A DNA stretch of 64,000 bases, from the IMG/VR virus record IMGVR_UViG_3300028833_002727. One strand, 5' to 3'. The notes beneath the pieces are model-generated. The model made no database searches and was not told where the DNA came from. It saw nothing but the letters and a program-made list of their open reading frames with translations. Positions 29,184 through 56,053 of the stretch are shown piece by piece (position 1 is the first letter of the stretch; each line of letters begins with the position of its first letter). A program made the position numbers and the translations under genes. Source of the stretch: a virus. Its lineage: Duplodnaviria > Heunggongvirae > Uroviricota > Caudoviricetes.

Positions 29184-29190
29184 TATTTAT
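29184..29190 (+). promoter_or_regulatory. putative phage late promoter TATTTAT
   Basis: Same box ~18-42 nt before starts at 30574, 40560, 54384, 60603 (+) and 28869, 46884, 54327, 60079 (-). Confidence 0.6.
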
Positions 29191-29211
29191 TAGTAAAAAT
29201 GATGTAAGAAT

Positions 29212-30429
29212 ATGAAACAGAAATTAATCAAACAATTCGAAAATGGTACAGATTTTAGTGTTTGTGTTATTGCTATGGAAAATGGTACATATGTTGTCAC
29301 TGAATATGATTTTGTTAATAAAAAACATGAATTAAAAGGCAAATATAATGACAAAAATCAAGCGTTAATAGCGGCAAAAGAAATAAACAAAAGTTTTATG
29401 GAACCAAGTAAGCAAACAATAAAGTTAAAAGAGTCTCAATTACGTCGTATGATTATGAAGGCGTTAAATGAAAAACTATATTTAACAGAAGATATATGTA
29501 TTGGTAAAGGTGGTGGCTATTATGGTGGTTCACCGATTTTTAGGGTATGTGTGGACAATGGTAATGGAACAGATTATTTATTTAGTCCTCCTGGATGGGA
29601 TTTTGACACACAGTCACAACTTGAGGCTGCTGCTATATGCTGTCATTCTAATAAAAGTTTTTTAAGTGAATTACTCAATTCACCAGAATTAAACCAATTG
29701 CCAGTTGTTACGCCAAGTGATAACGATAAAATTGAAGCGTTATACTGGTTGACAGGTGGTAATGTTGAATGGAATCACGGATACTGGTCTGAGCATGGAT
29801 GCAAGTGGAATGACGAAACAATAAAATTATTGATGGGTGACGCTGATATTATTGGAATGTTAGATAATGCCGTTAGTGCTTCAAAGAGTTTCGCTGAGTT
29901 AGTGAGTCATTTAAGAGAAGGTGAATACATGGTGTATGCTAATGATATTCTTCCATTGCAGTACGATGATGAAGAAGGTGCACAAGAACAATTGCAGGAA
30001 TCTAAACTTCGTGCTATCATTAAAGAAGGTATCAAAGAGGTACTAACTAGAAATCCACATTCTGAAGTTACAAGTTTTGGAACTGGAAAATTTTCTAATT
30101 TCGATTTAGCAAAGAAGTTTACTGAATGGGCGTTAAATGGTGATGCTGATAGACAAAGAAGAGTTGGCGGCCCTGTTAATGCTGTTGAGGCGATGCATGA
30201 TTACTATTATAACGATGATGATGAACAGTTATATAGAGCAGCAGAAGCATTCTCAGAAATAAGCGGTGATAATGTTGATGAAGTATTTGAGGCGGCGAAA
30301 TATGCTGCACAAACATACTTCTATTACAATCCGATGAATGAATCACAAATTCAACTTCGTGCTATCATTAAAGAAGGCATACAGAAAGTATTGAATGAAA
30401 GTGATTTTGCGCCTCGACGAAGAAGGTAA
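29212..30429 (+). CDS. putative virion-internal protein with three copies of the LxESxLRxII leader
   Basis: LKESQLRRMIMKALNE, LQESKLRAIIKEGIKEVL, MNESQIQLRAIIKEGIQKVLNE. Confidence 0.7.
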   Translation: MKQKLIKQFENGTDFSVCVIAMENGTYVVTEYDFVNKKHELKGKYNDKNQALIAAKEINKSFMEPSKQTIKLKESQLRRMIMKALNEKLYLTEDICIGKGGGYYGGSPIFRVCVDNGNGTDYLFSPPGWDFDTQSQLEAAAICCHSNKSFLSELLNSPELNQLPVVTPSDNDKIEALYWLTGGNVEWNHGYWSEHGCKWNDETIKLLMGDADIIGMLDNAVSASKSFAELVSHLREGEYMVYANDILPLQYDDEEGAQEQLQESKLRAIIKEGIKEVLTRNPHSEVTSFGTGKFSNFDLAKKFTEWALNGDADRQRRVGGPVNAVEAMHDYYYNDDDEQLYRAAEAFSEISGDNVDEVFEAAKYAAQTYFYYNPMNESQIQLRAIIKEGIQKVLNESDFAPRRRR

Positions 30430-30573
30430 TCCAATAGTAAACACACCGTGGGGAACTGAAGATTTAAACAATTACATGAGATTTAATTAATTAATACCGA
30501 AGGTAATAAAAGCCTTCGGTTTTTTTATGCCTTTTTATGTGTATAAAGATATTTATTGTTAAATAAATGCACG

Positions 30574-31458
30574 ATGAAAATAAGTAGAGATAAGTTACAG
30601 AACATGATATACGAGAGTATATATCGTCACATAGTCATGTCTGAAGGTATAGATGAATTAAATGCGTATCATGGTAGTTATGCTAATTTTGATAGATTTA
30701 AATTAGATAATAATATACGTTCTAGTGGTGAGGGTAGTACTGCTTCGCCTTGGGGTGTGTATGTAACTTCGAAAAAGGAGGTAGCGAATTATTATGCTAG
30801 TGCTGTATCTAGGAAGAATAACTATGATAAAAAATTAGGTGTTGTAAAAGATAAGGGCTGGGTGTATACGATAGAAATACCAGATGAAAGAAATTACAAT
30901 TATTTATCATTTGGTTCTAGATTTGGTGATGATGGTACTAGTTTTGGACAGGAGAGGCAAATACTGTATATACTTAACCAATTAGTAACTCGTGGTGTAA
31001 TAGATAGAACTACCTTTGGTTATTTATACAAATGTGTTGCGCCATATAAAATCCCCCAAAATGATAATGCTTTAAAAGGGTTTAACAATAATTTGTCATT
31101 GAGTGGTAATATAAAAAACAGTGGCTTTGTAAATGGTATTAAAAATTATTGGAACACTAAAAAAGGTAGTTCAGATGCATATCAGGGAAATATTAAAGAT
31201 ATTGAACAATTTTATAATTTGTTAGGGGCAACATTATTAAGAAGACAAGGGAATAACACTAATGGTAATACACAGATGGCTAATAAATTAGCTAGTGAGG
31301 CATTATACAAAGCCGGGTTTATTGGTATAAAGATACCGACTGGTTATTACGGACACAGTTCATATTATGGTGAATACAATTATGTAATATTTAATCCGAA
31401 TGATATAAAAATAATATCGAAAGAACCTACTCCAAACGGAGATTGGCGAAATAGATAA
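30574..31458 (+). CDS. ADP-ribosyltransferase (ART-PolyVal-like) with leader
   Basis: AYHGSYANFDRF...SGEG...WGVYVTS...YVIFNPNDIKII. Confidence 0.75.
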   Translation: MKISRDKLQNMIYESIYRHIVMSEGIDELNAYHGSYANFDRFKLDNNIRSSGEGSTASPWGVYVTSKKEVANYYASAVSRKNNYDKKLGVVKDKGWVYTIEIPDERNYNYLSFGSRFGDDGTSFGQERQILYILNQLVTRGVIDRTTFGYLYKCVAPYKIPQNDNALKGFNNNLSLSGNIKNSGFVNGIKNYWNTKKGSSDAYQGNIKDIEQFYNLLGATLLRRQGNNTNGNTQMANKLASEALYKAGFIGIKIPTGYYGHSSYYGEYNYVIFNPNDIKIISKEPTPNGDWRNR

Positions 31459-31478
31459 CAAATGTTTTTGTGTGACAC

Positions 31479-32339
31479 ATGAAAATAAATAGAGATAAGT
31501 TAGTATATATGATTAGAGAAAGCATCTCCAGGGTATTATTGAAAGAATACGGTGGGGAGCAGTTAGTATTGCCGTTTGACGGTAATACGCGTGCGTATAA
31601 TTATATGCAGTATATAGATTTCATTAAAAGTCTAACAAAGCCAGGTGAGATTACGTCTAATGTGCATAGTATAGATGAATATTACAAGAAAGTTAATATT
31701 GATAGTGAAACGCTGTTTGATATAGGAGTAAACACAAAATTTTATGACGGATATGCGCGTGAAGAATTCAATGATGATGAATATGAAGTTTTTATTGGTG
31801 AGTTAGAGGATAAATATGGCGATATGATATACGGAGAGAATAGCAATCCTTTGAGCGTTCGTTATAGTATTGGTGAAGAGTTATCAAGTGAAGGATTTAA
31901 ATATTTTGCAGATAAATTAATAGAAAGTGCTAAATATGAACTTAGTTGGATGTTAGGTGAATTATTTAAATATTGTGTTGACGGTATGCTTTACATGAAT
32001 AGGGAATTAGTAATACCTGCGGCATTAAATAGATGGGAAAGTGACAATTATAATAGTTTATATGAATTATTGCAGCATATGTACAGTAATTTAGGTTACT
32101 ATTGGGCTTATGGAATAGATACTGGGTGTGCTTATTGTGCAGAGCGTTTTAAAGGCGGTACGTCAACAATTAGTTTAATTGCCATGACTCCGATTGAGAA
32201 TGTTGATATGTCTGAAACCTGTGCATTGTGTGGTGTTGGTGAACACGAAGTATGTTTACATGATGACACGAAAATAATGTTAATTGGTTTAAAGATAGAT
32301 GGTAAAGAGATAAATATTGGGCACAGGGTATACAAATAA
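31479..32339 (+). CDS. leader-bearing protein with probable ART-fold C-terminal domain
   Basis: MKINRDKLVYMIRESI..LLKE; LYMNR...LGYYWAY...GEHEVCL. Confidence 0.55.
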   Translation: MKINRDKLVYMIRESISRVLLKEYGGEQLVLPFDGNTRAYNYMQYIDFIKSLTKPGEITSNVHSIDEYYKKVNIDSETLFDIGVNTKFYDGYAREEFNDDEYEVFIGELEDKYGDMIYGENSNPLSVRYSIGEELSSEGFKYFADKLIESAKYELSWMLGELFKYCVDGMLYMNRELVIPAALNRWESDNYNSLYELLQHMYSNLGYYWAYGIDTGCAYCAERFKGGTSTISLIAMTPIENVDMSETCALCGVGEHEVCLHDDTKIMLIGLKIDGKEINIGHRVYK

Positions 32340-32371
32340 AAAAGTCACCTGATTGTAGGTGGCTTTTATTT

Positions 32372-32881
32372 TTACTGGTTATCCTGTAATCGTTTTAATG
32401 CTTTTTTAAGTTGTCCAATATCATCAATGCATCCAACCATTTTATCATTGTTTCGTCTACGGTATGGTGTGCCAAACATTCCTTGCATTGCAGTACTCTT
32501 GATGTAACTTTTGATGTATTCAATATCACCTTCAGAAAAATACGGAACAGTTGATGTATACTTATACATTGTGATTGTAGTTTCACCAGCAGTAAACTCA
32601 ATATAATCTTTAGTTTTTGCTGATTTAAACCATTCATACAATGAATTCAAACTGTTATACGCTTCTTCAGGATTATTACCTAGTTTAATTCTTATGTACT
32701 CAGTGCTTTCTATATCTTTTACATTTAAAACATACACACTATCATAACATTTGATATTGTAGTACATTCCTTTGATAACGTAGTCTTCTACCCTGCTACT
32801 TCCTCCACTTGAAATTGTAATTTGTCCAAAAGACATAATGCTAACAATGCACAGCATAAACGCAGTTAAAAATCTCTTCAT
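32372..32881 (-). CDS. secreted/periplasmic protein
   Basis: Signal peptide MKRFLTAFMLCIVSIMSFG-Q. Confidence 0.7.
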   Translation of the reverse strand: MKRFLTAFMLCIVSIMSFGQITISSGGSSRVEDYVIKGMYYNIKCYDSVYVLNVKDIESTEYIRIKLGNNPEEAYNSLNSLYEWFKSAKTKDYIEFTAGETTITMYKYTSTVPYFSEGDIEYIKSYIKSTAMQGMFGTPYRRRNNDKMVGCIDDIGQLKKALKRLQDNQ

Positions 32882-32906
32882 ATTTTTTACTATTTTATTT
32901 TTATTG

Positions 32907-33791
32907 TTATATGATGCCAAGCATTTCGATCAGTGTTGAAATAAGTTGTTCGTCACTATCTTCGAGTTTGGCTGTGTATTTTAGTGGTTCTAACACGTGT
33001 GGTGCAACTGTGCTGTATCTGTATACGACTTTACCGAGGCATTCCATGTTATCCACGAATTTTTGTGCATCCTTGTAGTGTTTCATTTTCCTGGATGGTG
33101 TGAATGCGAATATAACGGTTGCGTTATTATCTTTTGCGTAGTTTTGTAGTTTATCTACGTAGCGATTGAACTCAGCATCCAATGGGATTTCGTCAATAGC
33201 AACAACGTCATATTTGTTGCGTCCTATTTTTGTACTGAACTCGTATTCATCTATACCGTAGGCGTTAAATGAGCCTCCGTCTACTGGTGCGAAGTTTGTA
33301 CAGGTTATTTTTCTTTCGAATGCATTTTTTACTTCTTTGGCGAAATTAGCATTGTAGGTACAGTAAACAACTTTTTTACCAGCCATGTATTCGCGGAACA
33401 GTATTTCGCTGATGATGTCTGTCATACCTGCTTGTCTCATTTTAACGACTGGTATGAATAAATCACCTGCTGTTGTTCTGTTGAAGTAGTATTTAACAAA
33501 TCGTTTCTGAAGTGGTGTTAATTCTACGTCAGATATGTGGCAAGTTAAACGAGATAGCAGTCTCATTTTTGTACCATCCCAGAGTAAATCGTTAAATAAG
33601 TCTTTTCTGGCTTCCCTTTTTAGCACCTCATCTTTTTTCATTGAAGGTGGAAAATCACCGTAGCAATTGTAAAGGGTGTTGTCGTTGTTAGGTGTGGTTT
33701 CGTGGTGGTTACTTTCTGTCTTATATTCTTTTCCGTGTTTAAAACCTAATACATATCCTCTGGCGAATTCGCCTGTTGTATCTTTTGACAT
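32907..33791 (-). CDS. P-loop protein resembling a degenerate terminase ATPase domain
   Basis: LTPLQ, KMRQAGMT, VVAIDE, AFTP. Confidence 0.5.
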   Translation of the reverse strand: MSKDTTGEFARGYVLGFKHGKEYKTESNHHETTPNNDNTLYNCYGDFPPSMKKDEVLKREARKDLFNDLLWDGTKMRLLSRLTCHISDVELTPLQKRFVKYYFNRTTAGDLFIPVVKMRQAGMTDIISEILFREYMAGKKVVYCTYNANFAKEVKNAFERKITCTNFAPVDGGSFNAYGIDEYEFSTKIGRNKYDVVAIDEIPLDAEFNRYVDKLQNYAKDNNATVIFAFTPSRKMKHYKDAQKFVDNMECLGKVVYRYSTVAPHVLEPLKYTAKLEDSDEQLISTLIEMLGII

Positions 33792-33976
33792 GTTTATATT
33801 ATAATTTTTCGTTAACCAGCAAGAATGCTGTTATTATTATTAGTGCTGTAAAAAGTGACATAATTTTACCTGATTATTGGGTAAATACTCTTGTTTATCT
33901 AAAATTCTTAAATACCTGAATTATAAGTGATTAAGATGTTAATCTGGTAAAAATCATGTATATAAAAACGTTATTT

Positions 33977-34237
33977 TCATATTTTTCTGCGTTTGGTTTT
34001 TGTGTATATACGTACATATCCATACTCTAAATCATGTACAATTTTGGTTACTTGTACTTCCATGTAACCAGCCTCATCGAATTCGTCCTCGAATTGATCG
34101 GCATTCTCAAAATCCATATCTTCCGAGCCTATTAGTATGTACTCGCCTACACGTGGGCACACAACTTCATCATCGTGTCCTCTGTAATATGTTTTTATAA
34201 GTTCGTCATTCAAATAAATTTCAATGTCAGTAGTCAT
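33977..34237 (-). CDS. small acidic protein
   Basis: PRVGEYI motif; start overlaps upstream stop. Confidence 0.65.
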   Translation of the reverse strand: MTTDIEIYLNDELIKTYYRGHDDEVVCPRVGEYILIGSEDMDFENADQFEDEFDEAGYMEVQVTKIVHDLEYGYVRIYTKTKRRKI

Positions 34238-34695
34238 AGATTTTCTGCTTTTGTTAAAAAGTTAAACCATTCTTCTGAAAAATATACGTTGCTTGGTATT
34301 TCTTTGGTAGTTCCAGCAGCGTTAACAAACATGCGCATCATCTGTATGCCTGTGTATCCGTTTAAGGATTTTTTGTATGTGTTTCTGTATGCCACCATGA
34401 ATTTTAAATCAGGATGTAGTACAGCACAAGCATACATCTTTTGGATGTTTCTTGTTATATCTTTTTGAGATATGGAGCAATAGGCAGTTCCTTGAACGCG
34501 TAAGTCTTTTGTTGGTAGTGCGTAGGCATTACCTTGAAGTCCTTCACCTTGTCCGTAGATAGCACCGAATTGTTCCCTGGCTACTTTTGCAGCACCAGCG
34601 CCATGCCTACCTTCGGGATTGCTCCCGAAGACAAAAACTATGTTTTCTCCTGGTGTTATTTCGCCTTGATAGAACTTGAGTGTGCTAGTATCCAT
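34234..34695 (-). CDS. Macro-domain-like (A1pp-related) phage protein
   Basis: VFVFGSNPEGRHGAGAA...FGAIYGQGEGLQGNAYALPTK. Confidence 0.7.
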   Translation of the reverse strand: MDTSTLKFYQGEITPGENIVFVFGSNPEGRHGAGAAKVAREQFGAIYGQGEGLQGNAYALPTKDLRVQGTAYCSISQKDITRNIQKMYACAVLHPDLKFMVAYRNTYKKSLNGYTGIQMMRMFVNAAGTTKEIPSNVYFSEEWFNFLTKAENL

Positions 34696-35183
34696 TCTGC
34701 GTATTCTTTTTTGTATTGTGTTATTTCATTAGTGCTTAATTCGCCATGTTGTTCACGATAACGCATTTCGTTGAAGTAGCGAATCTTTTTCTGATATTCA
34801 TATCTATTGTGTTCGTCTTGTTTCAGTTGTCCTTTGAGTTCTTCCAGGTGTTCCCTAACGATTACCACGCGTTCGTGGTGACTGAGACTAAGCGCGTAGT
34901 TATACTCCATATTTAAATCTTCGATAAGGATTTCCCAGATTTCTTCGTTGAACTCATCTTCACCTAAACCGTCTTCGCCATCAAAACCATTGAAGCGTAG
35001 TCTATCCACAATGTAGTCGAATACTGCATCACAATCCATATCCATAACCCAGTCGTACGGGGTATCGTCGTAAACTAGAGTTTGTCGATGATATTTCTCT
35101 CCAGGCCGTATGATATGTCCACAACAGGTACATTCGTGTGGTTTGCGGGCAACTGGATATTTGTCTTTTAATACTGTAATCAT
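34656..35183 (-). CDS. Zn-ribbon phage protein
   Basis: ARKPHECTCCGHIIRPGEKY. Confidence 0.65.
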   Translation of the reverse strand: MITVLKDKYPVARKPHECTCCGHIIRPGEKYHRQTLVYDDTPYDWVMDMDCDAVFDYIVDRLRFNGFDGEDGLGEDEFNEEIWEILIEDLNMEYNYALSLSHHERVVIVREHLEELKGQLKQDEHNRYEYQKKIRYFNEMRYREQHGELSTNEITQYKKEYAEWILAHSSSIKAK

Positions 35184-35195
35184 TTTTTGTAATGT

Positions 35196-39821: not shown

Positions 39822-40439
39822 TTATAGAGTACCGCGTAAATCGGCTAATTCGTCGTTAATACCGTCGCGAAGTCTACCGTCCATTCTGAACACAAACAAA
39901 TCCTCAAGGGTTTTTTCAATGGCGTTCGTATAGAGAGTTGCTTTATCGGATAAAACATCCAACGTAGCCTCATACATAGCACAACGTTCCTCCAGTTTTT
40001 TGCATATTCGATTGTGGTATTCCTCTTCTGTCTCAGGCGCATACTCAATAATGCAGAGAATTCTGCCACACGACGTATCGTAAATACATCTGTAATATTG
40101 GCCTTTCGACAAGTACAATATTCTGTCAATTTGTTTACCGTCAGGCAATTTGATGTGACGGCAAGTATATGTGCGAGTCTCTGGTGCAAGACACCATACG
40201 TTGCTTTTTAGTTTCTTGTGCAACTTAGTCAACAGGGTTTTATCCTTGTTGATTTCGTTGATGTCACCTGGTAATTCTTGATAGTTTTCACTTTTGTAGA
40301 TGACTCTACACGGCGTACTTGATGGGTGTTCACAAGTGATGTCTTTGTTGAGTTCGACTTCATATACACCTATATCATCCGCACAATCATTGCGGAACCC
40401 TTCTCTGTAGATGTAACGTGGTTTTTCAATTTTACTCAT
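39822..40439 (-). CDS. hypothetical phage protein
   Basis: After host promoter ~40482. Confidence 0.75.
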   Translation of the reverse strand: MSKIEKPRYIYREGFRNDCADDIGVYEVELNKDITCEHPSSTPCRVIYKSENYQELPGDINEINKDKTLLTKLHKKLKSNVWCLAPETRTYTCRHIKLPDGKQIDRILYLSKGQYYRCIYDTSCGRILCIIEYAPETEEEYHNRICKKLEERCAMYEATLDVLSDKATLYTNAIEKTLEDLFVFRMDGRLRDGINDELADLRGTL

Positions 40440-40559
40440 ATGCTATTTTATTTATTTTGGATCAGAATATGTATTTCTGCTGCAAAAGTAGTAATAATTT
40501 TTCAAATAACCAAATATTTGTATAGGAAAAATGTATTTATCTATAAAGTAACTGAGTAA

Positions 40560-41606
40560 ATGTCTAAAGTAATTAACGAAAATATATTAAGAAGTATCAT
40601 TCGTAATGCGTTGAATGAAGCAGTTGATGAGTTGAACTTATATCACGGCACAAATGCTGATTTTGATAAGTTCGATTTTGCTTACCTATCTTCTGGCTGG
40701 GGCCAACAAGCATATGGTTATGGCTTTTATTTAACAACCAGTTATGATGCTGCAAAGGATTATGCATATGATGCTAATCATGGACAAGTGATGGAAGTAG
40801 AAGTGCCTGATGGGAAATATCTAACTGATGTTAGTATAAGCAAGGCTGAAGCAAACCGCATAGCGCGTATTTTCTTTAAATACATGACTGAAGAGAATGA
40901 AGATACTCGTGATAGTTATTCTACTGAAGAAGAGAAACGTTGTTTTTGGGATTACGAAGTGGATTATGTACGCCGTTGTAGCACTGGCACCTATGTATAT
41001 GGTACAATTGCTTCACTAATGGGCAGCGACAAAGATACTTCAGAATTTTTACATGACAAATGTGGCTATGTTGGATTAAAGATAAGGGACAGATATAACG
41101 CCGGAAAAAAGACGCCAATTACATATGTTATATTCAACCAAAATGATATTAAGATATTGAGGAAAACCCACGTTAATGAAAAAGTTGACAAATCAAAAGT
41201 TGATGAATTCCATAAAATATTTACATTTGGAAAATACAATGGACAAGAAAAGACTAAAGTTATACGAGAAGACCCTGAATATTGTGTGTGGTTATATAAA
41301 AAAATGAAATATTCACCATTTACTGATAAACAGCTTGGATTACTGGATGTATCATATTATAGAAAATATAAAATATTCCCAATTAAATCTAGAACAACAC
41401 CTAATTATGCACAAATAAAAGGTGTTTTAGTAAAGAATATGACAGCAGAACAATTATCATATGTATATGAGAATGGAACAGATGAATTTAAATGGCTAGT
41501 AAAACAAGAGCACACGAATCGTGGTTGGCATTATCACCCATACAAAAGGTATCCTGTTTTTCAGACGGATGATTTATACGAGAATATAGATAGCAGACTA
41601 CATTGA
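40560..41606 (+). CDS. ADP-ribosyltransferase (ART-PolyVal-like) with leader and FGKY C-terminal domain
   Basis: LRSIIRNALNE; LYHGTNADFDKF...GQQAYGYGFYLT...YVIFNQNDIKIL; FTFGKYNG...DPEYCVWL. Confidence 0.8.
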   Translation: MSKVINENILRSIIRNALNEAVDELNLYHGTNADFDKFDFAYLSSGWGQQAYGYGFYLTTSYDAAKDYAYDANHGQVMEVEVPDGKYLTDVSISKAEANRIARIFFKYMTEENEDTRDSYSTEEEKRCFWDYEVDYVRRCSTGTYVYGTIASLMGSDKDTSEFLHDKCGYVGLKIRDRYNAGKKTPITYVIFNQNDIKILRKTHVNEKVDKSKVDEFHKIFTFGKYNGQEKTKVIREDPEYCVWLYKKMKYSPFTDKQLGLLDVSYYRKYKIFPIKSRTTPNYAQIKGVLVKNMTAEQLSYVYENGTDEFKWLVKQEHTNRGWHYHPYKRYPVFQTDDLYENIDSRLH

Positions 41607-45900: not shown

Positions 45901-46173
45901 TTATTGTTCAAGTTTTACTCGTACATTAAATTTCTCGTTAACATTTACGACAATGGTGTCGTTTTTAGTGGGCTGTGTTTTATCAACACTAACCAGGAAG
46001 TTAATCATTTTTTCCTGGGTTTCAACACGTTTTTCCAATTCCTCCACCTTGTCAAGTGCAGTAGTATTGAGGGCGCGTGTGAATACAAGTAAAAGGATTA
46101 TCATGAGAATGATAACAACTTCAATCATCGGCCACATGAATTTTCTCAAATCTTCTTTTAATTGTGCATCCAT
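45901..46173 (-). CDS. membrane protein
   Basis: TM plus coiled coil after host promoter ~46224. Confidence 0.6.
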   Translation of the reverse strand: MDAQLKEDLRKFMWPMIEVVIILMIILLLVFTRALNTTALDKVEELEKRVETQEKMINFLVSVDKTQPTKNDTIVVNVNEKFNVRVKLEQ

Positions 46174-46260
46174 TTTTCTGATCTTTTTAATTGTTAATAA
46201 TGTTATTTGTTTCAAAATCTGGTGCAAAGATACAACAAAAATTTCAATTAACCAAATATA

Positions 46261-46884
46261 TTATAGAAAAAAGCACAAAAAAAAATGTTTGCAATGTCTT
46301 CGTTTCTTAATTTCGTGGTAACTTAGATATGCAAACATTAGTAATAAAAGTGGTACTATTGCGTCACCTATTTGAGTTGGTGGATATTGATAACCTTGAA
46401 TTGAACCTGATGGTATTGTATGTCCATAAAGTAAAGTCCAATGCCACCCTAATAAGTTATCCCATTCAGACACATTACCTTCATCATCCTCCCGATACCA
46501 TCTGTCTTTACTTTCATTGTAATAATATGTATATCCATCTTCCCAGAATGATTCACCCCTACCTATCCACGTTCCTTGTTCAGGGCCTGAAGTGCTTGAA
46601 CCAGTTTCATTTCCATTATCGTCATACCCTTTTACTTTTCTTACTCCTGGCCTTCCACTTCCTCCATTGTTCGCATTCCCATTAAAATATGGGTTATATG
46701 TACCAGAATATGTTGATGTATTTAAATTCTGGTATGCTGATGGTGTGAATTGCCCATTAGAATAATTAGTAGTATAACCAATCTTTGTTTGAGGTTGGTA
46801 TGTAGACATATTACTTTGATACATATGTGCATGTACTAAAGTAGTGTATAATAGTAATAATATGATATATATTGCTCGTTTCAT
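46261..46884 (-). CDS. secreted protein with C-terminal xIGD-TM-basic sorting-signal-like tail
   Basis: Signal peptide; PPTQIGDAIVPLLLLMFAYLSYHEIKKRR. Confidence 0.65.
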   Translation of the reverse strand: MKRAIYIILLLLYTTLVHAHMYQSNMSTYQPQTKIGYTTNYSNGQFTPSAYQNLNTSTYSGTYNPYFNGNANNGGSGRPGVRKVKGYDDNGNETGSSTSGPEQGTWIGRGESFWEDGYTYYYNESKDRWYREDDEGNVSEWDNLLGWHWTLLYGHTIPSGSIQGYQYPPTQIGDAIVPLLLLMFAYLSYHEIKKRRHCKHFFLCFFL

Positions 46885-47007
46885 AATCAAAAATATGTTT
46901 TATAACATAAATATACAAAAAATTTAAAAAATTTAAAAAGATGTATATTTAGTCTATAATGATAATAGAAAAAGTATTTATTGGTGAAAAAATATAGGTT
47001 AAAAAAT

Positions 47008-47304
47008 ATGAAAAAAATTCTAAGTATGATAATGCTATGCGTCATTAGCATTATGTGTTTTGGTGAAAATTATTATTGGGAAAAAGTAAAATTAACATCA
47101 TCTGAATATCATAAAGATGGTGAATACATTATTTGTTATGAAACACCAGGAAATAAAATAAAAGTTTTCCAAAATTTTATGACACAAGCGATAACAATAA
47201 ACAAAACTAACGACTCAAATGAGAAAAAAAGAAAGAGTAGAAGATTAACCTCTACTCTTTTTCTTTTGTCCGTATTCTTCTATTACTTGAAGAATATGAT
47301 TTGA
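47008..47304 (+). pseudogene. possible truncated secreted-protein gene
   Basis: Signal peptide MKKILSMIMLCVISIMCFG then sequence runs into the opposing gene. Confidence 0.3.
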
Positions 47305-47475
47305 ACCCATGAGTTGAAACGTTAACTCATCAGCAAGTTCTACTGCTGTTCTGGCTATTTGAGCGCCGCTATCATATTTGTAGTAGTCAGACACTCTCAG
47401 GTTAGCACATATTTTTGCAGCAGTTTCGTTGCGAAAAGCAAACCAGTCAAACGGCTTCTTATTCATATTTATCAA
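47245..47475 (-). CDS. small conserved phage protein
   Basis: RNETAAK...IARTAVELADEL. Confidence 0.6.
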   Translation of the reverse strand: MINMNKKPFDWFAFRNETAAKICANLRVSDYYKYDSGAQIARTAVELADELTFQLMGSNHILQVIEEYGQKKKSRG

Positions 47476-48346
47476 TTGGAGCGAAATAGAAGTTATACAC
47501 TACACGCTCGGTAACGCGTCCATCCTCGTCACGCTTCCACATACGAACAGGAATTTCATATCTGGAATTCTCAAGGTAGTTCTGCAAATCTTCATCACTC
47601 TCAATCTCGAAGCCGTTAATCTTTTCACGTTCGATTAAGTGATGGATATGTTCTTTTGTGAACTCAAGACACTTCTCTACGTTGTCACAAACAACGACAG
47701 GGAAAATACCGTTTGTGGTAATATCGTAGTCCGGGGTGCAGATACCTAACTTCTGAAGCAAGTTTTTTTTCTTCATTTTAGTTTCGCTCTTGATTACCTG
47801 CACGATGTACGGCGTTACCGTCTGTACACCATCTTTATCTACGGTGTATTCAACATGTGATGCCATTTTGAGAATGGTATGCTCATGTCCGAATGCCCAA
47901 TCGTAATTTTTAACATCGCACAAGCGAATCCAGCGAATATCGGAAGTTTCACCCTCTTCGTTCGCAGCGTTAGACAACGGATACTCGTCTATTGTACCTG
48001 CGAGTTTTACCCAGAAACGGAGGTTGATATTCTTGTCACCATCCTCACTGAAACTTACTGAGTCAAAGGTAAACTGCTCAGGTTTCAGTTTTACGCCAGT
48101 TTCCTCGTAGGTTTCGCGCGCTACACCCTCGTTACCGTTCTTGTCAGCAAAGTCGATGTAACCACACGGTACGTTCCACTTACCAACGTTTGTCGGAGCG
48201 CCAGGCCCGCGTTGATTTGCGAGTACACAAAGGTAACCCTCTTTGTCTGCACAGAATACGTAACCTACAGTTGTGCAGGAACGACTTCTCCAATAAGTTT
48301 GTCCATCTTCCACGAACGGGAAGTTATACATTTTTCTTTCACCCAT
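47459..48346 (-). CDS. Nudix hydrolase (ADP-ribose pyrophosphatase-like) with C-terminal extension
   Basis: GKWNVPCGYID...ARETYEETGV; WAFGH. Confidence 0.88.
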   Translation of the reverse strand: MGERKMYNFPFVEDGQTYWRSRSCTTVGYVFCADKEGYLCVLANQRGPGAPTNVGKWNVPCGYIDFADKNGNEGVARETYEETGVKLKPEQFTFDSVSFSEDGDKNINLRFWVKLAGTIDEYPLSNAANEEGETSDIRWIRLCDVKNYDWAFGHEHTILKMASHVEYTVDKDGVQTVTPYIVQVIKSETKMKKKNLLQKLGICTPDYDITTNGIFPVVVCDNVEKCLEFTKEHIHHLIEREKINGFEIESDEDLQNYLENSRYEIPVRMWKRDEDGRVTERVVYNFYFAPIDKYE

Positions 48347-48361
48347 ATTGTTTTATCTTTG

Positions 48362-48568
48362 TTATTTTTGGAACACGTTTTTTCGCATCATATCTAACCA
48401 GTTCTCATCCCATCCTAACACATCAGGGTAGAGGAACATTGCTTCACTTGCGTATTTGTTTTCTGCCATGTATTCAGCGATGCGTTGATTGTAGATGTCC
48501 CAAGTCTCTTGGAATGTTTTGGTTCGAATATTTCTGTTGTATTCGTTAATTATTTCAAGTGCGTCCAT
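48362..48568 (-). CDS. hypothetical protein
   Basis: Co-oriented ORF. Confidence 0.55.
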   Translation of the reverse strand: MDALEIINEYNRNIRTKTFQETWDIYNQRIAEYMAENKYASEAMFLYPDVLGWDENWLDMMRKNVFQK

Positions 48569-48716
48569 TTTTATTCAATTTAACTAAACGAAGCAAGCCA
48601 TTGGAACTCATCCTTTACTTACATATTATGCGTCTGAAAAAGTTTATTACATATAAAGGAGAAACTTATACCAACCTTGCCAATTATTTCATATCCAATG
48701 GCTTACCGTTTAGTCG

Positions 48717-49973
48717 TTAATGTTTTTTGAAAATGTTTGCCACTCTTGCGAAGAAGCCAACATGTTCAGTTTCAGCAACTGGTTCAGACTCGGTGGTGCT
48801 CTTTACATCGAGCTTCAAGCCAAGTTCGATGCTAGCAGCCTGGATTTCCTTGCTGTCCCCCATTACCTTACCCTCGTCGTCAGAAATCTTGATGCAGTGT
48901 ACCCAATCCTGCTTTGCGTTCATACGACACTTCATCAGTTTCATAACGATGTTCATAGGAGTAGCGCCTACGTCGTTGGTGAGGTTTGTACCGATACCTG
49001 CGCAGCACTTGCCAATTTTCCCCCGGCAAGCGTCATTGATTTCCTTGAATTTCGGGAAGTCAAGCGCATTGGAGAAGATGATAGTCTTCAGCATCGGGTC
49101 TACACCCAGTTCACGATAGCGTTCTACCGCCTTGTTCAGGAACTCAATCTCGTCCCCAGAGTCTTGACGGATTCCGTCAAACAGTTTTGCCTGTTTCAGT
49201 GAGAAGTTACGGAAGAATGCGTTGCTGGTGTAGGTGTCCGTGAGGGCAGTACCGAGCGCACCGTCAAATACCTTAACCCAAGACTCGTAAGCCTCGTAGT
49301 TGGCATGACGATAGCCGAAGTTTGCACCATGGAACATAATCCACTCGTGAGCAACAGTGCCGATTGGCTTCATGTCGTACTTCATTGCAAGGTGTACGTT
49401 GGACGTTCCTACGCAATACTTAGAGTTCGCTTTGAGATAGCCAACCACTTTGTCTTGAACATCGTAACTGAAACGACGGCGAGTTCCGAATTCTGAATAC
49501 AACAGATGCTCATCGTTGGAAAGTTTTACTTTCGGTTCGAGTCTACCGAAGATGTCCTCATCGGTAATAGTGTGATTACTGTTGTTAAGTTCTGAAACGG
49601 TTGCGAGAATAGGTACCTCATAGAGGGTAACCTTGTAGAGTTTGTCACATACGGTGATGTGAAGATGTGCTTGCTCGTCGAGCCATACCTTGATTTTCTC
49701 AGGCTCGTAGCGGAAGCCTTTAAGCCACTCCCAGTAACAAGCAGGAATGTACGGCATAGCCTTGATAGCCCATGCAAGTTCCTCGTCTGTGAGTGCCAGT
49801 TGCGACATTTTATTGAATTCCTCTTTAAGTTGTTCTACAAAGATGTCGTCAAACTTCATAGAATGATTTCGGTTGTTGAACTCGAATTCTCCCTCTGCAT
49901 CTGGGAACAGTTTCATATAACCGTAACCCATAGAGAATTTATACAAGTCGTTGTCGAGAATACTTTTAATCAT
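48717..49973 (-). CDS. pncB: nicotinate phosphoribosyltransferase
   Basis: LDNDLYKFSM, EFGTRRRFS, GTSNV, GTVAHEW, GIRQDSGD, GIGTNLTND, NIVMKL, KISDD.GK. Confidence 0.95.
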   Translation of the reverse strand: MIKSILDNDLYKFSMGYGYMKLFPDAEGEFEFNNRNHSMKFDDIFVEQLKEEFNKMSQLALTDEELAWAIKAMPYIPACYWEWLKGFRYEPEKIKVWLDEQAHLHITVCDKLYKVTLYEVPILATVSELNNSNHTITDEDIFGRLEPKVKLSNDEHLLYSEFGTRRRFSYDVQDKVVGYLKANSKYCVGTSNVHLAMKYDMKPIGTVAHEWIMFHGANFGYRHANYEAYESWVKVFDGALGTALTDTYTSNAFFRNFSLKQAKLFDGIRQDSGDEIEFLNKAVERYRELGVDPMLKTIIFSNALDFPKFKEINDACRGKIGKCCAGIGTNLTNDVGATPMNIVMKLMKCRMNAKQDWVHCIKISDDEGKVMGDSKEIQAASIELGLKLDVKSTTESEPVAETEHVGFFARVANIFKKH

Positions 49974-50263: not shown

Positions 50264-50280
50264 TTTATTCCTTATTTATT

Positions 50281-50526: not shown

Positions 50527-50530
50527 TTTT

Positions 50531-50806
50531 TTATATCCTATTTAGTTTGATACGAATTGTTTTGTATTTCTTTCTGATCTTTTCTCTTTCGTCAGAAGTT
50601 AATTCTTTTTTTGAGTTTCCTATGTGCCATTTCCCACACACTGGACATTGATAAGATACCATTTTGTGAACTTGTTTGTCTTGGATGTTCATTTCGTAAC
50701 ATCGTAGGACTGCATCGTCTTCAGTGTTGTATTTTATCTTTGGCTGTCCATTTAGTAAAAAATGCGACTTTGGAACTCTGACAAGTTTGTCATCTACCAC
50801 AAGCAT
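50531..50806 (-). CDS. Zn-finger protein
   Basis: YQCPVCGKWHIG. Confidence 0.65.
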   Translation of the reverse strand: MLVVDDKLVRVPKSHFLLNGQPKIKYNTEDDAVLRCYEMNIQDKQVHKMVSYQCPVCGKWHIGNSKKELTSDEREKIRKKYKTIRIKLNRI

Positions 50807-50851
50807 ATTTGTTTCGTTTTTCAAATCTGCTGCAAAGGTAATACAAATTTT

Positions 50852-51838
50852 TCAATTAACCAAATAATTTTCAACAAAATCGTAAAATTCTTGCTTTATT
50901 TTTTCTGTTTCGGCATTATAAATCTCTTGATAAACGTCATATTGCTCATCATCGAAATTTTTCCACAGCACTCCAGTTTTCTCTTCCGCAAGACGTTTAC
51001 ACTCATTAAATAAACTTCTATCATGTCCTTTGAGCCAGTGTTCAATATTTCGTCCATGGAAGTAACCATTATATGCGTCATCTTCCTCATGCCCATAACA
51101 GAAAAATTCAAGACTATCGTTTTTCTCTTGCTGTATTTTCAACCACTGATCTGGAACATTCCAAGCCGTTTCACAATCGCCATACACCACAATTTTGTCA
51201 TGCTCCAACTCCTTAACACGCCAATCTTTTGGATAAGCATTCCATTTTGTTCCTCTATATTTTATTCCCCAGTCATACCATCCAACAACACCGTACTTCT
51301 CTCTTTGTTCTTTCACAGCACGACGGTACAACTCAACATACATCTCTCTTGCTTTTAAAAGGGAGAAATAAAGTTGTTTTCGATCAGAGTCTTGTGAAAG
51401 TTCCTCAACGTACTTTGCGGAATATTTACCAATCCATGTGCCTTTATCGCGAAGAAGCTTGGTAAATTTCTTTATCGTTTGTTTGTTTGCTTTTTTATAT
51501 GGACATTCCATATTTTCTATTTTGCAAACATATTGTACATAATCCAACACCACTTCGTTTGGAATAAACATACCGTCTTCAAAATCAATACGGTGTACAA
51601 ACCAACCATGTGTATTGTCAGAAAGCGGATTTGTGGTATCAAACAAATGGAAAGTTTTGGGCATTGGATTGAATGAATCCAGTGAAATGTTTTCGTTTGC
51701 TTTTAGTTTTTTCTCAATTTCTGGTGCTTTGGCGTTGGCTGAAATCTTCAAATCTTTTTTGAATGACTTGTTGAGCCATTTAATAACTTGTTGTCTGTTG
51801 CCACCAATAGCAATTGTGTTGTAACTGTAGTTAGGCAT
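50852..51838 (-). CDS. DUF1281/Api92-like protein
   Basis: MPNYSYN...PMP...GWYDW...GTKWNA...ETAW. Confidence 0.75.
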   Translation of the reverse strand: MPNYSYNTIAIGGNRQQVIKWLNKSFKKDLKISANAKAPEIEKKLKANENISLDSFNPMPKTFHLFDTTNPLSDNTHGWFVHRIDFEDGMFIPNEVVLDYVQYVCKIENMECPYKKANKQTIKKFTKLLRDKGTWIGKYSAKYVEELSQDSDRKQLYFSLLKAREMYVELYRRAVKEQREKYGVVGWYDWGIKYRGTKWNAYPKDWRVKELEHDKIVVYGDCETAWNVPDQWLKIQQEKNDSLEFFCYGHEEDDAYNGYFHGRNIEHWLKGHDRSLFNECKRLAEEKTGVLWKNFDDEQYDVYQEIYNAETEKIKQEFYDFVENYLVN

Positions 51839-51931
51839 TGTTAAATTGTTTTTGTGATTAAACTTATGGTTTTTCGCTGCAAAGATACTACAAAAATTTC
51901 AAATAACCAAATTTTGCAATAAAAAAACCGC

Positions 51932-52216
51932 TCATTTCTGGGCGGTTATCTTTTTTGCTTTTTTCTCTGCTATCATTTTTTTAGCAAGTTCTTTGTTCTG
52001 TTCTTTTTTCTTTGCAACTTCTTCAGGGTGCTCATCATTCCATTTGTCTTGTTCTTCAATGAATGAAACATATCCTATTTTCCAATTGAAATAGTGTGGG
52101 CACATTAAAAACCAGTGATTATCTTTTCCTTCTGCGATACATTTACCTTTCATTTTACATTTTCCATTACACATTTCCTCTTGGAATTGTGGTATATCTT
52201 TTTCGTCGTATTTCAT
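51932..52216 (-). CDS. hypothetical Cys-containing protein
   Basis: Start overlaps upstream stop. Confidence 0.6.
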   Translation of the reverse strand: MKYDEKDIPQFQEEMCNGKCKMKGKCIAEGKDNHWFLMCPHYFNWKIGYVSFIEEQDKWNDEHPEEVAKKKEQNKELAKKMIAEKKAKKITAQK

Positions 52217-54327
52217 AGTAAATCTTCTTCTTTTAAACCTAAATTATTTAAAAACCACTGTTTAATCCACCACATGTAGTCATATTCCTGGAAATATTTA
52301 AGTAAAAGATATTCTTTAAGTTCCATATCATTACCAGTTAAAATCTCTTTAATTCTGTCATAGTCAAAATATTTTATTTTTTCTATTTTGAAGTTAAATT
52401 CAGATATTGGAATATTTTCTTCAGTAATAACAGAATCTGAGTTAACAAATCTAAATCTACCAGTTTCGGTAAACTCACTCACAGGCACTTCGATAGAAAT
52501 TTTACATTCGTTTCCCCAAGCGTCTGGGTGAACGGTAAAGAATAACATATTGCCATGTCCTTCAGAATGATGCTGGTGTATGTCTAATTCTCCGGTAGCA
52601 AGAATATCCCCAAGGCTCATCATTCTTGTGTTATGATAGAGTTTAATGAAACCATTTTGTTGATTTTTCTCTATCTCCTCTAACTCCCACTCTTGGTTGT
52701 AGTGTTCTGTTAGATACCCGCTATTTGATATTTGTGTTAATGTTCTTGCACCACCTTCGATGAATATACTAGACATATCTCCACGTTGGTGTGTTACATC
52801 TAAAGCCTTGTTAATCAATACTAAACATTGTTCTGGGCTTGTATAATTGTCATCGTATTCGGTTAATACTTCGTATAGTGGACGTAAGCCAAAATCACTC
52901 CAAGCGTCACTACCATCAGGCATTTGCATCCAATCATATAAACCAACCATGTCTAATAACCTGAATATGTCCATTTTAACAAGTATTTTGCCATCTTTAT
53001 CAAGTTCGGCTTTATCACCATTTAACCCAAATGATACTTTGCATTCTTGTTCACCGCTATTATGGTAATTGTATATATCAATAATACCTTGCAAATCTTT
53101 GTCGCGGGTTTTAATCATGTATTCGTTATCGTAGTAGTCCAATTCTGGTTGAGATAGGAACATCGCTGTTTGTCCTTTATTTGGACCCATTTGATGAACT
53201 GCTTCTTCAGATAGATTATTCTTCTGCATGAACTCGTCTATGTATTCTTTTTCATTTGGGCTTAATACATATCTACCGTTCAATAAATCATTGATTAGGT
53301 ATTGTGGTGTAACATGTAATGTACATTCATAATCCCAATCCATGACTTCCATGTTTAGTTTATTTTTGATATATTCATTGATGTAACTATTGTCCAACGC
53401 GTCGTAACTCATCCATTGTGAGTGTCCTGCTAATTCAGTATTACAATCAAGTTTAATAGTGTTACGCATGATAATACCAATCCACTGATATACATATTTC
53501 TCTGGGAAACCGTCTAGATTACCTTGTTTGGTAAATACTTGTAACGCGCGTTGATATATTGATGGGTTAATTAGAGGTGCCCAGGTTTGTGTTTCTCTTC
53601 CCTGGTTCATATCTTCAACGAAATCGTTTAGAATAGACTCACAACTAATCTCTTCAGAATAATCTTCAAGTGTTGCTTCATTTAGAAGTCCGTTTTCATT
53701 AAGTTTCTCTTTTTTAATCTCAGCATATTCAAAGAAAGGCTTTCTTTGTTGATAACCATCATAGAGCCATTTTTGGAATACCGTATGAGGAACTTCAGTG
53801 ATTTTCCAGAAGCCATTCCAACCTTCGTTGTAATTAGCCATGTATGCCTCTTTTGCCTCTTGCTCATTTCTGAAACCTAACATGATTTTAGTTTCATCGA
53901 ACTTACCGTCAATCTTCTGGTCGATAGCGAAGATAGAATATGTATCGAAATTATCTCCAAGGAATACATCAACAGCATCACCATCATAACCAAGTGTATG
54001 AGTGAAATAGCCGTAATCATTCTTCATTCTAACTTGCCACTTGTTACCTTTTCTGTCTTTACCACTACGGATAGTGCCACGTGGGTTTTCTATTGCAATG
54101 TCGTAACCAAGGATACGCACTCTACCCATTTTGTAGTTGCCCGCACTCTTTTGTCCTTCTGTTGGATTTTTATCGGTTTCCTCACGTGCTTGTTGTATCT
54201 TTTGTTGAAGTTCTGAAACTTGATTTTCTGTGAAGAAAATACGTTTTTGCTTATTTTCGTTTGATACAAGTTGCTCTTTTATTGCTTCTATTTGTTTTTC
54301 TGTTAAGAATATTTGTTTTTTTGCCAT
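52213..54327 (-). CDS. multidomain protein: leader x2, polyvalent-protein InPase domain, C-terminal ART-like domain
   Basis: PTEGQKSAGNYKMG...IENPRG.IRSG...YGYF..T.G.DGDAVDVFLG...FDE.KIMLGF; KLYHNT...ILATG...LFFT. Confidence 0.75.
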   Translation of the reverse strand: MAKKQIFLTEKQIEAIKEQLVSNENKQKRIFFTENQVSELQQKIQQAREETDKNPTEGQKSAGNYKMGRVRILGYDIAIENPRGTIRSGKDRKGNKWQVRMKNDYGYFTHTLGYDGDAVDVFLGDNFDTYSIFAIDQKIDGKFDETKIMLGFRNEQEAKEAYMANYNEGWNGFWKITEVPHTVFQKWLYDGYQQRKPFFEYAEIKKEKLNENGLLNEATLEDYSEEISCESILNDFVEDMNQGRETQTWAPLINPSIYQRALQVFTKQGNLDGFPEKYVYQWIGIIMRNTIKLDCNTELAGHSQWMSYDALDNSYINEYIKNKLNMEVMDWDYECTLHVTPQYLINDLLNGRYVLSPNEKEYIDEFMQKNNLSEEAVHQMGPNKGQTAMFLSQPELDYYDNEYMIKTRDKDLQGIIDIYNYHNSGEQECKVSFGLNGDKAELDKDGKILVKMDIFRLLDMVGLYDWMQMPDGSDAWSDFGLRPLYEVLTEYDDNYTSPEQCLVLINKALDVTHQRGDMSSIFIEGGARTLTQISNSGYLTEHYNQEWELEEIEKNQQNGFIKLYHNTRMMSLGDILATGELDIHQHHSEGHGNMLFFTVHPDAWGNECKISIEVPVSEFTETGRFRFVNSDSVITEENIPISEFNFKIEKIKYFDYDRIKEILTGNDMELKEYLLLKYFQEYDYMWWIKQWFLNNLGLKEEDLL

Positions 54328-54383
54328 AATTAAGGTATTTATCTATGAATAAATATAGATAATTATTTGAAAGTGTCAACAAT

Positions 54384-55520
54384 ATGAAAGTTATTTTAAC
54401 TGAAAAACAATATAAAGAATATTTGCGTTTCCTACAGGATGAGCACAACCATAATCTCATCATGGAGGAATTCAAGGCTGAACTATCTCAAAAAGATATG
54501 CCAGCAGAATTCCAACAAATGAACGATTATATGTATGGTGATATACCACAGGGTAGATTGGATGCAATTCAAGATCGTTATACTAAAAACGGTTTTACAT
54601 ATAACAATAGTGCTAAACATCCTGAATTAGGACAACACAACGCAGAAGTTAAACCTAATGTTAGCGGTAGTGTATTCCCATTTGGTAATATCAAATTATC
54701 ACATGAAGTACTAATCGTTAACATGACTAGTGCATTACATTGCCCATCTGCAAAATTCTGTCCTATCGGAAAGAATGCGTGCTACGCTTTTAATGATGAG
54801 AGACGTAGAGAGTCATACTGGCAACGTAATGCAAGAAATGAAATCATGTTTGATATGGCAAGGGAAAATCCTGCTAAATGGAAATATATATTCTGGTTTA
54901 TTAGAAATTACATTGACAAAGCGCGTAACGCTGGCGTGATTGTTAGATATGTACGTCTAAACGAGGCTGGCGACTTTAAAACGGCAGATGACGTTCGCCG
55001 TTTTGATGAATTTGCTGCTGAATTGAAGAGAGATTACGGTATTGAGACACACGCATACACAGCAAATAAAGACTTGATTGATGCGATTTCACAAGTAAAA
55101 AACATCAATATAAATGCTTCAATTCCAGATATTCAGGGTGAAAAGGTTTTACGTCACTTCTATGGCGTAGAAGAGGAAATCCTTGCTCAATTACCAGATA
55201 CTCCGCTTAGGGATATTGCAACGCCTGAGTTACAGGAAGGCGGCAAATGGGGATTATATTACAAATGCCCATGTGATATTGCTGCTGGTGCAAGATGCTT
55301 TAATTGTCAAGTATGCTGGTTAGCAAAACCAGGTATCGCACCTAACGGTGAACAAGTACCACAATTTAATGTATTATGTAAAATACACGGTGCAGGTAAA
55401 AAACACTACAATCAAGCAAACGCTGATAAAAAAAGAGGTATGTCACCAGCACAACAAAAACTAAATATTAAGAAAATGGTTAAACAAGCGCGTCGCGCAG
55501 AAAATGAAGTAAATCAATAG
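54384..55520 (+). CDS. Gp88-like Cys-rich protein with leader
   Basis: MKVILTEKQY; GNIKL..CPS..CP..CYA; VRLNEAGDF; AYT; CPC..CFNCQVCW. Confidence 0.65.
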   Translation: MKVILTEKQYKEYLRFLQDEHNHNLIMEEFKAELSQKDMPAEFQQMNDYMYGDIPQGRLDAIQDRYTKNGFTYNNSAKHPELGQHNAEVKPNVSGSVFPFGNIKLSHEVLIVNMTSALHCPSAKFCPIGKNACYAFNDERRRESYWQRNARNEIMFDMARENPAKWKYIFWFIRNYIDKARNAGVIVRYVRLNEAGDFKTADDVRRFDEFAAELKRDYGIETHAYTANKDLIDAISQVKNININASIPDIQGEKVLRHFYGVEEEILAQLPDTPLRDIATPELQEGGKWGLYYKCPCDIAAGARCFNCQVCWLAKPGIAPNGEQVPQFNVLCKIHGAGKKHYNQANADKKRGMSPAQQKLNIKKMVKQARRAENEVNQ

Positions 55521-55531
55521 GAGATGAAAAT

Positions 55532-56053
55532 ATGAAAATAAAAAAAGATGTTTTAACGAGAATGATACGAGAAAGTATCACTAAGTGTTTGAATGAAACA
55601 ACGTTCAGTGATTTGGATGATATGGATAATTATAGCTGGCAATATTCAAGGGGTGAACGATTTGATATTTATGTTGATGGACATTTAGAATATCACGATA
55701 TTCCAGAAGAATCTGTTGATAGAATATGTGATATGCTTGAACGCGCTCCATATGAACAAAATATTGAAGTAAAAAGGATTGGTGAGTTATCTGAAGAACG
55801 TGATATTGATGCTGACACGTATTATGGCGGTGGTTTGCCAGAACCAGCACAACACGCTATGACTTATACACCAGAAAAAGAGGTTGCTGAAATATGCGAA
55901 CAAATGCGTCCATACGTAGACAAACTAGCGGACGTATTCAATAGTTATAGTCCAACAGTTCAAGGTGTTGATGATAAAGTATTTACATTACTTAACGGGT
56001 TCGATGAACTACCAAAGTTAGCAAAATTCTTTTCAACTACTGAAATAGACTAA
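55532..56053 (+). CDS. acidic leader-bearing protein
   Basis: MKIKKDVLTRMIRESITKCLNE. Confidence 0.7.
   Translation: MKIKKDVLTRMIRESITKCLNETTFSDLDDMDNYSWQYSRGERFDIYVDGHLEYHDIPEESVDRICDMLERAPYEQNIEVKRIGELSEERDIDADTYYGGGLPEPAQHAMTYTPEKEVAEICEQMRPYVDKLADVFNSYSPTVQGVDDKVFTLLNGFDELPKLAKFFSTTEID

Follow-up and report, generated by a model that had tools for sequence, protein, structure and literature searches.

A recurrent helix ending in a prohead-protease-type motif, a probable capsid-loading and processing module of an uncultured T4-type jumbo phage of Bacteroidota

The 64,000-nucleotide stretch of DNA studied here (IMG/VR record IMGVR_UViG_3300028833_002727; "the window" means this stretch at its full length) is part of an uncultured T4-type jumbo phage of Bacteroidota. 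Five of its predicted proteins, named after the start positions of their genes (29212, which has three copies, 30574, 31479, 40560 and 55532), possess a common leader. This is an amphipathic helix of approximately 22-24 residues with hydrophobic residues at i, i+3/4, i+8 and i+12, a core of x-L-R-x-M-I-x-E-x-I and an end that is usually L-N-E. From its sequence, the leader is probably a module for docking to the prohead core and for processing, resembling the capsid-targeting sequence (CTS) of phage T4 in the way it works, and it probably also forms the joint of chains made up of several cargos. The genes concerned, together with two others that a preliminary description of this DNA had assigned to the same set, are the following, ART denoting ADP-ribosyltransferase:

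29212..30429 (+): 405-aa mosaic protein with three leader copies between cargo modules of unknown fold, its last cassette cut short
29419-29490, 29986-30057 and 30334-30405 (+): the leader copies of 29212, at residues 70-93, 259-282 and 375-398
30574..31458 (+): leader (30574-30645) and ART-PolyVal domain, 294 aa
31479..32339 (+): leader (31479-31550) and a 260-aa cargo of a rare family
40560..41606 (+): leader (40566-40637) and ART-PolyVal domain with a variable C-terminal region, 348 aa
52213..54327 (-): 704-aa InPase protein with a middle domain shared with polyvalent proteins and N-terminal LTEKQ helices
54384..55520 (+): 378-aa GP88-family protein with an N-terminal ILTEKQ start
55532..56053 (+): leader (55532-55603) and a 150-aa cargo of unknown fold

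A hidden Markov model (HMM) of the seven copies recovered only these same seven from the six-frame translation of the window, with scores of 29.9-40.3 bits and the next match at 4.5 bits. When each protein was left out of the model in turn, it was always the best non-training match among 1101 segments; this was significant for 31479 (E = 2e-5), 55532 (E = 9e-6) and 30574 (E = 3e-3) and weak for 29212 (E = 0.15) and 40560 (E = 1.7). In a test with reversed-sequence decoys, covering the window and 20 kb of a relative, 11 copies had scores of no less than 15.8 bits, where the top decoy reached 6.8. BLASTP likeness among the leader proteins is limited to the leader, the exception being 30574 and 40560, which also have ART-PolyVal in common.

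The preliminary description had attributed the leader to seven proteins, and with 54327 and 54384 this was not confirmed. Their N-termini, which have an I/F-L-T-E-K-Q start, were missed by three leader models of rising breadth, including one of 40 copies, as was a 128-aa protein with a similar LTESQ start from the head operon described below. Relatives P0053 and P0075 of the 31479 family have a helix of LTENQ/INENQ type at the leader position, and the N-terminus of 54327 aligns weakly with that of P0075 (pairwise E = 0.33). The two N-termini may be termed leader-like in a loose sense, their sole links to the set being positional.

Copies from all proteins covered by the analysis were pooled to give 41 unique leaders, many of them homologous and thus not 41 independent trials, and 36 of these have (L/I/V/M/F)-x-E at a fixed position at the helix end, compared with approximately 30% by chance; the background of (L/I)-x-E is 0.029 per position. 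In the 31479 family the site immediately precedes the domain in every one of the 24 aligned members, even where identity falls to approximately 20%. Placement of the leader is not N-terminal only: 26 of the copies are N-terminal, 11 internal and four C-terminal. Many leaders also have L-x-E at their start. T4 gp21 and its giant-phage relatives cleave after Glu in three-residue motifs, and T4 Alt is trimmed at both ends, at ITE-6 and LTE-619 (PMC5694885), while residues 8 and 10 of the 10-residue T4 tag govern processing (PMC9026906). In the head-core proteins of a relative of the window, [LI]-x-E is over-represented 1.5-3.3-fold, against 1.1-fold in presumed early proteins; the corresponding value for T4 gp22 is 2.8-fold.

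This relative is one of a number of ENA scaffolds of 97-379 kb, syntenic with the window, which were found by exact-protein matching and share 83-96% nucleotide identity with it per aligned block (means of 88.4% and 90.4%). It continues from the last gene of the window, coding for a UvrD-like helicase, via a tail-fibre-like gene to a T4-type head operon, the order of which is a 128-aa protein, a 388-aa protein, glycosyltransferase-like genes, Peptidase_S77, SprT-like zincin, a 430-aa protein, a 502-aa protein and a Gp23-family capsid protein. The Peptidase_S77 prohead protease (E = 8.6e-20, at 14657-15376) and Gp23 (E = 1.8e-8) were read in L015, and the lineage therefore assembles its heads in the T4 way. 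Leader-bearing proteins lie between the protease and the capsid gene: the SprT-like zincin has an N-terminal leader, the 430-aa protein has two or three leaders and DUF3008, and the acidic, scaffold-like 502-aa protein has one copy. Upstream of the protease, SprT-like and scaffold-like genes and several of their neighbours is the heptamer TATTTAT, which also precedes leader genes of the window. The presence of leader genes inside a protease-to-capsid operon, taken with the protease-type end motif, points to the head.

The capsid protein of the relative shows only a distant relationship to those of Flavobacterium phage immuto, Rhodothermus phage RM378 and the Rak2-like jumbo phages. Its own cleavage site was not placed with confidence by alignment to T4 gp23, L-Q-E at residue 60 being a candidate only. 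The glycosyltransferase-like genes just before the prohead protease (L015 11562-14635) include a DUF1919-like gene and one for an 824-aa TOD1_MUCI70 protein. The tail-fibre-like gene, which is on the late strand just past the end of the window (L010 19055-21100), has a long run of N-T-F-G-N-x-C heptad-like repeats with an assembly gap inside the repeat.

In the route proposed for these proteins, genes with a late-type TATTTAT promoter would give rise to leader-cargo proteins, and the helix would retain these within the scaffolding core during closure of the Gp23 shell. There would then be cleavage by the Peptidase_S77 prohead protease after the Glu of (L/I/V/M)-x-E at the helix end, often with a second cut at the L-x-E of the helix start, and the freed cargo domains (ART-PolyVal, ART-like, SprT-like zincin, DUF3008 and unknowns) would exit the capsid with the DNA. 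In T4, replacement of such a Glu by Asp prevents the cut. With a helix of its own for each domain, cassettes could occur singly or strung in one polypeptide and could be swapped by recombination at or just after the leader. Core binding, cleavage, packaging, ejection and late timing are all steps that we infer.

Two classes of promoter-like element occur in the window. Nearly all genes of the window are small and on the minus strand, which has approximately 90 genes, and upstream of about 20 of these is a stereotyped TTTG ... TAnnTTTG unit (-33 TTTG / -7 TAnnTTTG):

1700-26500, 39822-40560, 45901-46260 and 50531-51930 (window): near-invariant promoter-like unit of TTTGG, an A/T spacer and TACCTTTG, some 25-35 nt 5' of the ATG, before approximately 20 minus-strand genes

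This pair has the Bacteroidota -33/-7 promoter form. The minus-strand genes that have it are therefore regarded as presumed early genes transcribed by the host polymerase, and the phage as one of Bacteroidota. Six of the seven genes first grouped together are on the plus strand, opposite to the presumed early genes, as had been noted. The leader motif is found in none of the approximately 90 minus-strand ORFs and in five of about seven real plus-strand genes of more than 150 aa; it is confined to genes behind a TATTTAT box, with none among the promoter-bearing minus-strand genes. The boxes of the window referred to here are:

29184..29190 (+): TATTTAT ending 21 nt 5' of the 29212 ATG
30550..30556 (+): TATTTAT ending 17 nt 5' of the 30574 ATG
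40534..40540 (+): TATTTAT ending 19 nt 5' of the 40560 ATG, back to back with the early promoter of 39822-40439 (-)
46907..46981: divergent TATTTAT pair serving 46261-46884 (-) and 47008-47304 (+), which code for small signal-peptide/membrane proteins with no leader
54336..54355: divergent TATTTAT pair, 54336-54342 (+) for 54384 and 54349-54355 (-) for 54327
60109..60115 (-): TATTTAT 29 nt 5' of 57497-60079, a ClpB-like gene with no leader

The arrangement reported for the original set, in which five genes have a box upstream and two follow such a gene, was found again: the five boxes end 17-41 nt before the ATG, while 31479 and 55532 follow in operons, starting 20 nt and 11 nt respectively after the preceding gene. 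A hairpin and T-run follow 30429, ahead of the box at 30550. The true start of 30574 is the ATG at 30574 and not the TTG at 30556, in agreement with its relatives. TATTTAT is not enriched overall in the window (31 copies against 31.8 expected), though 10 of the 31 copies lie in the proper orientation 17-44 nt upstream of a start, the top share among 7-mers of the same composition. Across 18 sites of the window and relative there is a purine at -1 in 17, and an AAA run four bases downstream, giving a sense-strand consensus of R-TATTTAT-W-N3-AAA. The box would be a late-type promoter. Together with the leader, it had been taken to mark the set of probable effectors. It does precede leader and head genes, but genes without a leader also stand behind it (for two membrane proteins, the ClpB-like protein and a zinc-ribbon/HTH protein), and it therefore marks a promoter class rather than a cargo set. 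The T4 late promoter is TATAAATA, read by gp55/gp33 on the sense strand at about -10. Like it, the present box is a lone short A/T element with no -35 partner, at a fixed short distance before head genes and distinct from host-type early promoters; its sequence differs from TATAAATA, and the two are alike in position and in standing alone only.

The divergent pair of small genes at 46261-47304, each behind its TATTTAT box, code for products with an N-terminal signal-like and a C-terminal hydrophobic segment. They could be late-class lysis or envelope proteins.

With regard to cargo, domain matches were obtained for ART-PolyVal in 30574 and 40560, InPase in 54327 (E = 2.7e-47) and GP88 in 54384, and the PHROG families with the InPase domain have the annotation virion or minor head protein. 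The cargo of 31479 belongs to a family with 33 representatives among 1.84 billion proteins. It gave no match in Pfam and no profile match to PDB sequences, and among 24 sequences of the family R175 and E255-x-E257 are invariant. In an AlphaFold2 model of the protein (mean pLDDT 87) the domain is confident, with the leader predicted to be a detached helix at residues 5-23, where pLDDT falls below 50 at 18-23 and the block mean for 21-30 is 50. The whole model had no Foldseek match in the PDB. A structural search with the C-terminal domain alone gave more than 30 ART-fold proteins among the 50 matches listed, examples being IcmQ, TreX, TreTu, pertussis S1, LT, diphtheria toxin, PARPs and DarT (Z of at most 4.2, rmsd of 3.4-4.8 over 75-105 residues), and the modelled domain is likely to have an ART fold. 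If so, the window would have three ART-like cargos, echoing T4 Alt.

Comparison with relatives shows these proteins to be modular. Among relatives of 29212 the pattern is a leader-A-leader-X-leader-Y mosaic in which modules have been exchanged at the leaders. Relatives of 55532 retain both leader and C-terminal half, with the part just after L-N-E replaced or deleted. Relatives of the ART-PolyVal proteins have the leader either in the form found in the window or in an I-T-E-S-Q-L form. Elsewhere the 31479 cargo lies behind four different partners with a leader-like helix at every joint, these being ART-PolyVal (E = 2.6e-12), cREC_REC, the middle domain of the InPase protein (E = 2e-28) and a homolog of the 388-aa head-operon protein (E = 2e-36), the latter beside a terminase gene in another huge phage (contig G001). 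The notion of a deconstructed polyvalent protein put forward in the preliminary description is well matched by these fusions. The window has just two multi-module proteins, 54327 (InPase and the shared middle domain) and the mosaic 29212, and clear multi-domain fusions were seen in relatives only (P0072, P0059, P0075 and P0058).

In 29212 itself the leaders are internal or C-terminal and none is N-terminal. Compared with L011 it has a 195-nt insertion right after the start (29215-29409), which makes its first leader internal. Its third cassette ends nine residues past the leader (30406-30429), at a point where relatives run on into a further domain.

Leader loci are variable islands in the backbone of 83-96% identity, cassette boundaries in relatives coincide with leaders, and copies b and c of 29212 have 23 identical bases in common. 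These features would also fit a stretch that matters as DNA, namely a homology patch for cassette recombination, like the conserved flanks of T4-like mobile gene cassettes, with the peptide being incidental. Between genes, however, leaders are just 36-58% identical in nucleotides and specify the same residues by differing codons, and conservation is therefore at the level of the peptide and not of the DNA. The amphipathic pattern and end Glu are also kept between lineages with no DNA similarity, and recombination at the leader is more readily understood as resulting from conservation of the peptide. On account of the low nucleotide identity and differing codons, a purely DNA-level explanation was rejected, and we consider its chance of being correct to be slight in the extreme.

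Another explanation is that the helix is a generic structural element of the cargo domains (N-terminal cap, linker between domains or helix for oligomerisation) that was inherited along with polyvalent modules and has no role in targeting or processing. The head-operon copies would then merely reflect how common such modules are in late genes. Its presence at N-terminal, internal and C-terminal positions is in keeping with this, as are its retention with the domain throughout the 31479 family, even at the lowest identities, and the fact that amphipathic Glu-rich helices often hold a chance (L/I)-x-E. Such a role would leave it unclear why the same helix comes before at least six unrelated cargo types, why cargo has been replaced right after a retained helix, why the end Glu is nearly invariant and why the helix is absent from all presumed early genes; the AlphaFold2 model, furthermore, predicts a helix that is not packed on the domain. 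We regard this explanation as unlikely.

Recognition by some other phage machine is a further alternative. The window encodes two AAA+ ATPases close to the leader genes:

57497-60079 (-): ClpB-like ATPase, with no leader
62119-63213: ClpX-like ATPase

AAA+ unfoldases recognise terminal tags, and the ClpB-like gene has a TATTTAT box. The leader might be read by these proteins for unfolding or turnover, or by an enzyme that modifies many tagged substrates. Such a function would account neither for leader genes within the protease-to-capsid operon nor for the conserved protease-type end motif, and it appears highly improbable.

Several points weigh against a docking and processing module as well. 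The head operon was read in a relative and not in the genome of the window itself. In sequence the leader is unlike the 10-residue T4 tag, and it has twice the length. (L/I)-x-E is a frequent motif of Glu-rich helices, and homology among many of the 41 copies means that their count overstates independence. The helix of the 31479 family is conserved with its domain and could belong to it. The end motif is missing from copy b of 29212 in the window. TATTTAT also occurs before genes that are not obviously those of virion proteins (the ClpB-like ATPase and the zinc-ribbon/HTH protein), and thus this promoter class is no proof of packaging.

Of known systems, the T4 internal proteins offer the closest parallel. 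The tag is responsible for the loading of diverse internal proteins in T4 (PMC3012670, PMC9026906), and the CTS of IPI, IPII and IPIII and the propeptides of Alt are removed by the prohead protease gp21 (Mullaney & Black 1996; PMC3012670, PMC9026906, PMC5694885). Here likewise, one short conserved peptide is found on otherwise unrelated, fast-evolving proteins in a lineage that has the T4-family Peptidase_S77 protease and a Gp23 shell, the leader ends in what would be a cleavable (L/I)-x-Glu, the cargo includes ADP-ribosyltransferase-type enzymes as with Alt, and the C-terminal leader copies parallel the C-terminal propeptide of Alt. The parallel with T4 capsid targeting suggested at the outset has indirect support from the protease, capsid protein, end motif, boxes, cargo swapping and head operon, and does not extend to sequence: with 22-24 residues against 10 and a different consensus, the leader is not in the sequence family of the T4 CTS, though it may work like one. 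Other differences are that the leader also occurs between modules of one polypeptide, that the cargo comes from the polyvalent repertoire and that the host phylum is Bacteroidota.

In phiKZ-like giant phages, a T4-related protease (phiKZ gp175, SPN3US gp245) also cuts many head-internal proteins after Glu, and propeptides can hold several sites and be N- or C-terminal (PMC5694885, PMC10052503). The motif there is (A/S/G)-x-E in long propeptides with no single shared helix, in contrast to the recurrent helix with (L/I/V/M)-x-E found here on many cargos. Polyvalent proteins, which occur in phages and conjugative elements (Iyer, Burroughs, Anand, de Souza, Aravind 2017, PMC5512222), have the same repertoire of ART-PolyVal, InPase and SprT-like zincin domains, are likewise predicted to be virion-packed effectors delivered with the DNA, and resemble the fused multi-domain forms seen in relatives. 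They are also linked to virion and packaging genes, as are the leader-SprT gene beside the protease and the 31479 relative beside the terminase in G001. Here the modules are mostly in separate genes or short strings with a leader before each. Iyer et al. (2017) propose that a polyvalent protein is processed by an MPTase domain of its own and anchored through MuF or portal fusions (PMC5512222), roles that the prohead protease and leader helix would fill in the present phage.

Leaders were also identified beyond the close relatives. In the distinct huge phage G001, TATTTAT boxes precede several genes with N-terminal leaders, and two further copies are C-terminal; a search of this contig, a 69-kb fragment that is approximately 20% complete, found neither Peptidase_S77 nor Gp23. 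The cultured, T4-like Flavobacterium phage vB_FspM_immuto_3-5A (MW353176) has one leader-like N-terminus (QQO92108, E = 9.6e-4 within the genome), which belongs to a 252-aa protein (L019 2645-3403) with a leader-like helix followed by DUF5661, in a late region, 5' of the genes for terminase and portal. In the literature searched, we found no account of a leader of this kind in phages of Bacteroidota. A wider reading, which we put forward tentatively and with less than even confidence, is that a single "address-and-cut" cassette is spread across a clade of huge T4-type Bacteroidota phages, where a helix bracketed by prohead-protease sites loads any domain, lets the protease split polyvalent polyproteins in the head and serves as a joint for cargo exchange. 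This would amount to an evolvable platform for effector delivery and a portable packaging tag for gut/rumen Bacteroidota phages.

If the leader does act as a docking and processing module, the capsid-targeting principle of T4 would extend, with a different and longer tag, to a distant lineage of Bacteroidota jumbo phages. It would explain how effectors of polyvalent type enter capsids and are separated with neither MuF anchors nor a peptidase of their own, and would supply a list of candidate injected effectors, including three that are ART-like, in phages of a dominant gut/rumen phylum. Foreign proteins could also be packaged into such phages by means of a defined peptide. The leader-like N-terminus in a cultured Flavobacterium phage makes the idea testable.

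The window has a G+C content of 33-44%, and searches of GenBank phages and IMG/VR revealed no close relative of it. Contigs of 317,841 bp and 388,829 bp were found to carry the 55532 protein and a GP88 homolog respectively, and the phage is therefore considered a jumbo phage. Its other genes code for, besides the ClpB-like and ClpX-like ATPases, a NAPRTase-family enzyme, a NUDIX protein and TnpB. The NAPRTase-family enzyme (418 aa) adjoins the NUDIX protein (295 aa) at 47459-49973 (-), near several genes of NAD-consuming ART type, and the two may be a phage NAD salvage or regeneration pair. The TnpB/IS605-family gene (56147-57289, -) lies between the 55532 gene and the ClpB-like gene, while in a close relative (L010 8681-9808) it lies between the InPase and GP88 genes, displacing the divergent TATTTAT region. 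Its differing sites show that the element has moved within the phage lineage. A small KTSC-domain protein is encoded at 60145-60507 (+); the start of 60052 listed for this ORF looks too early, and the product called in a relative is of 122 aa.

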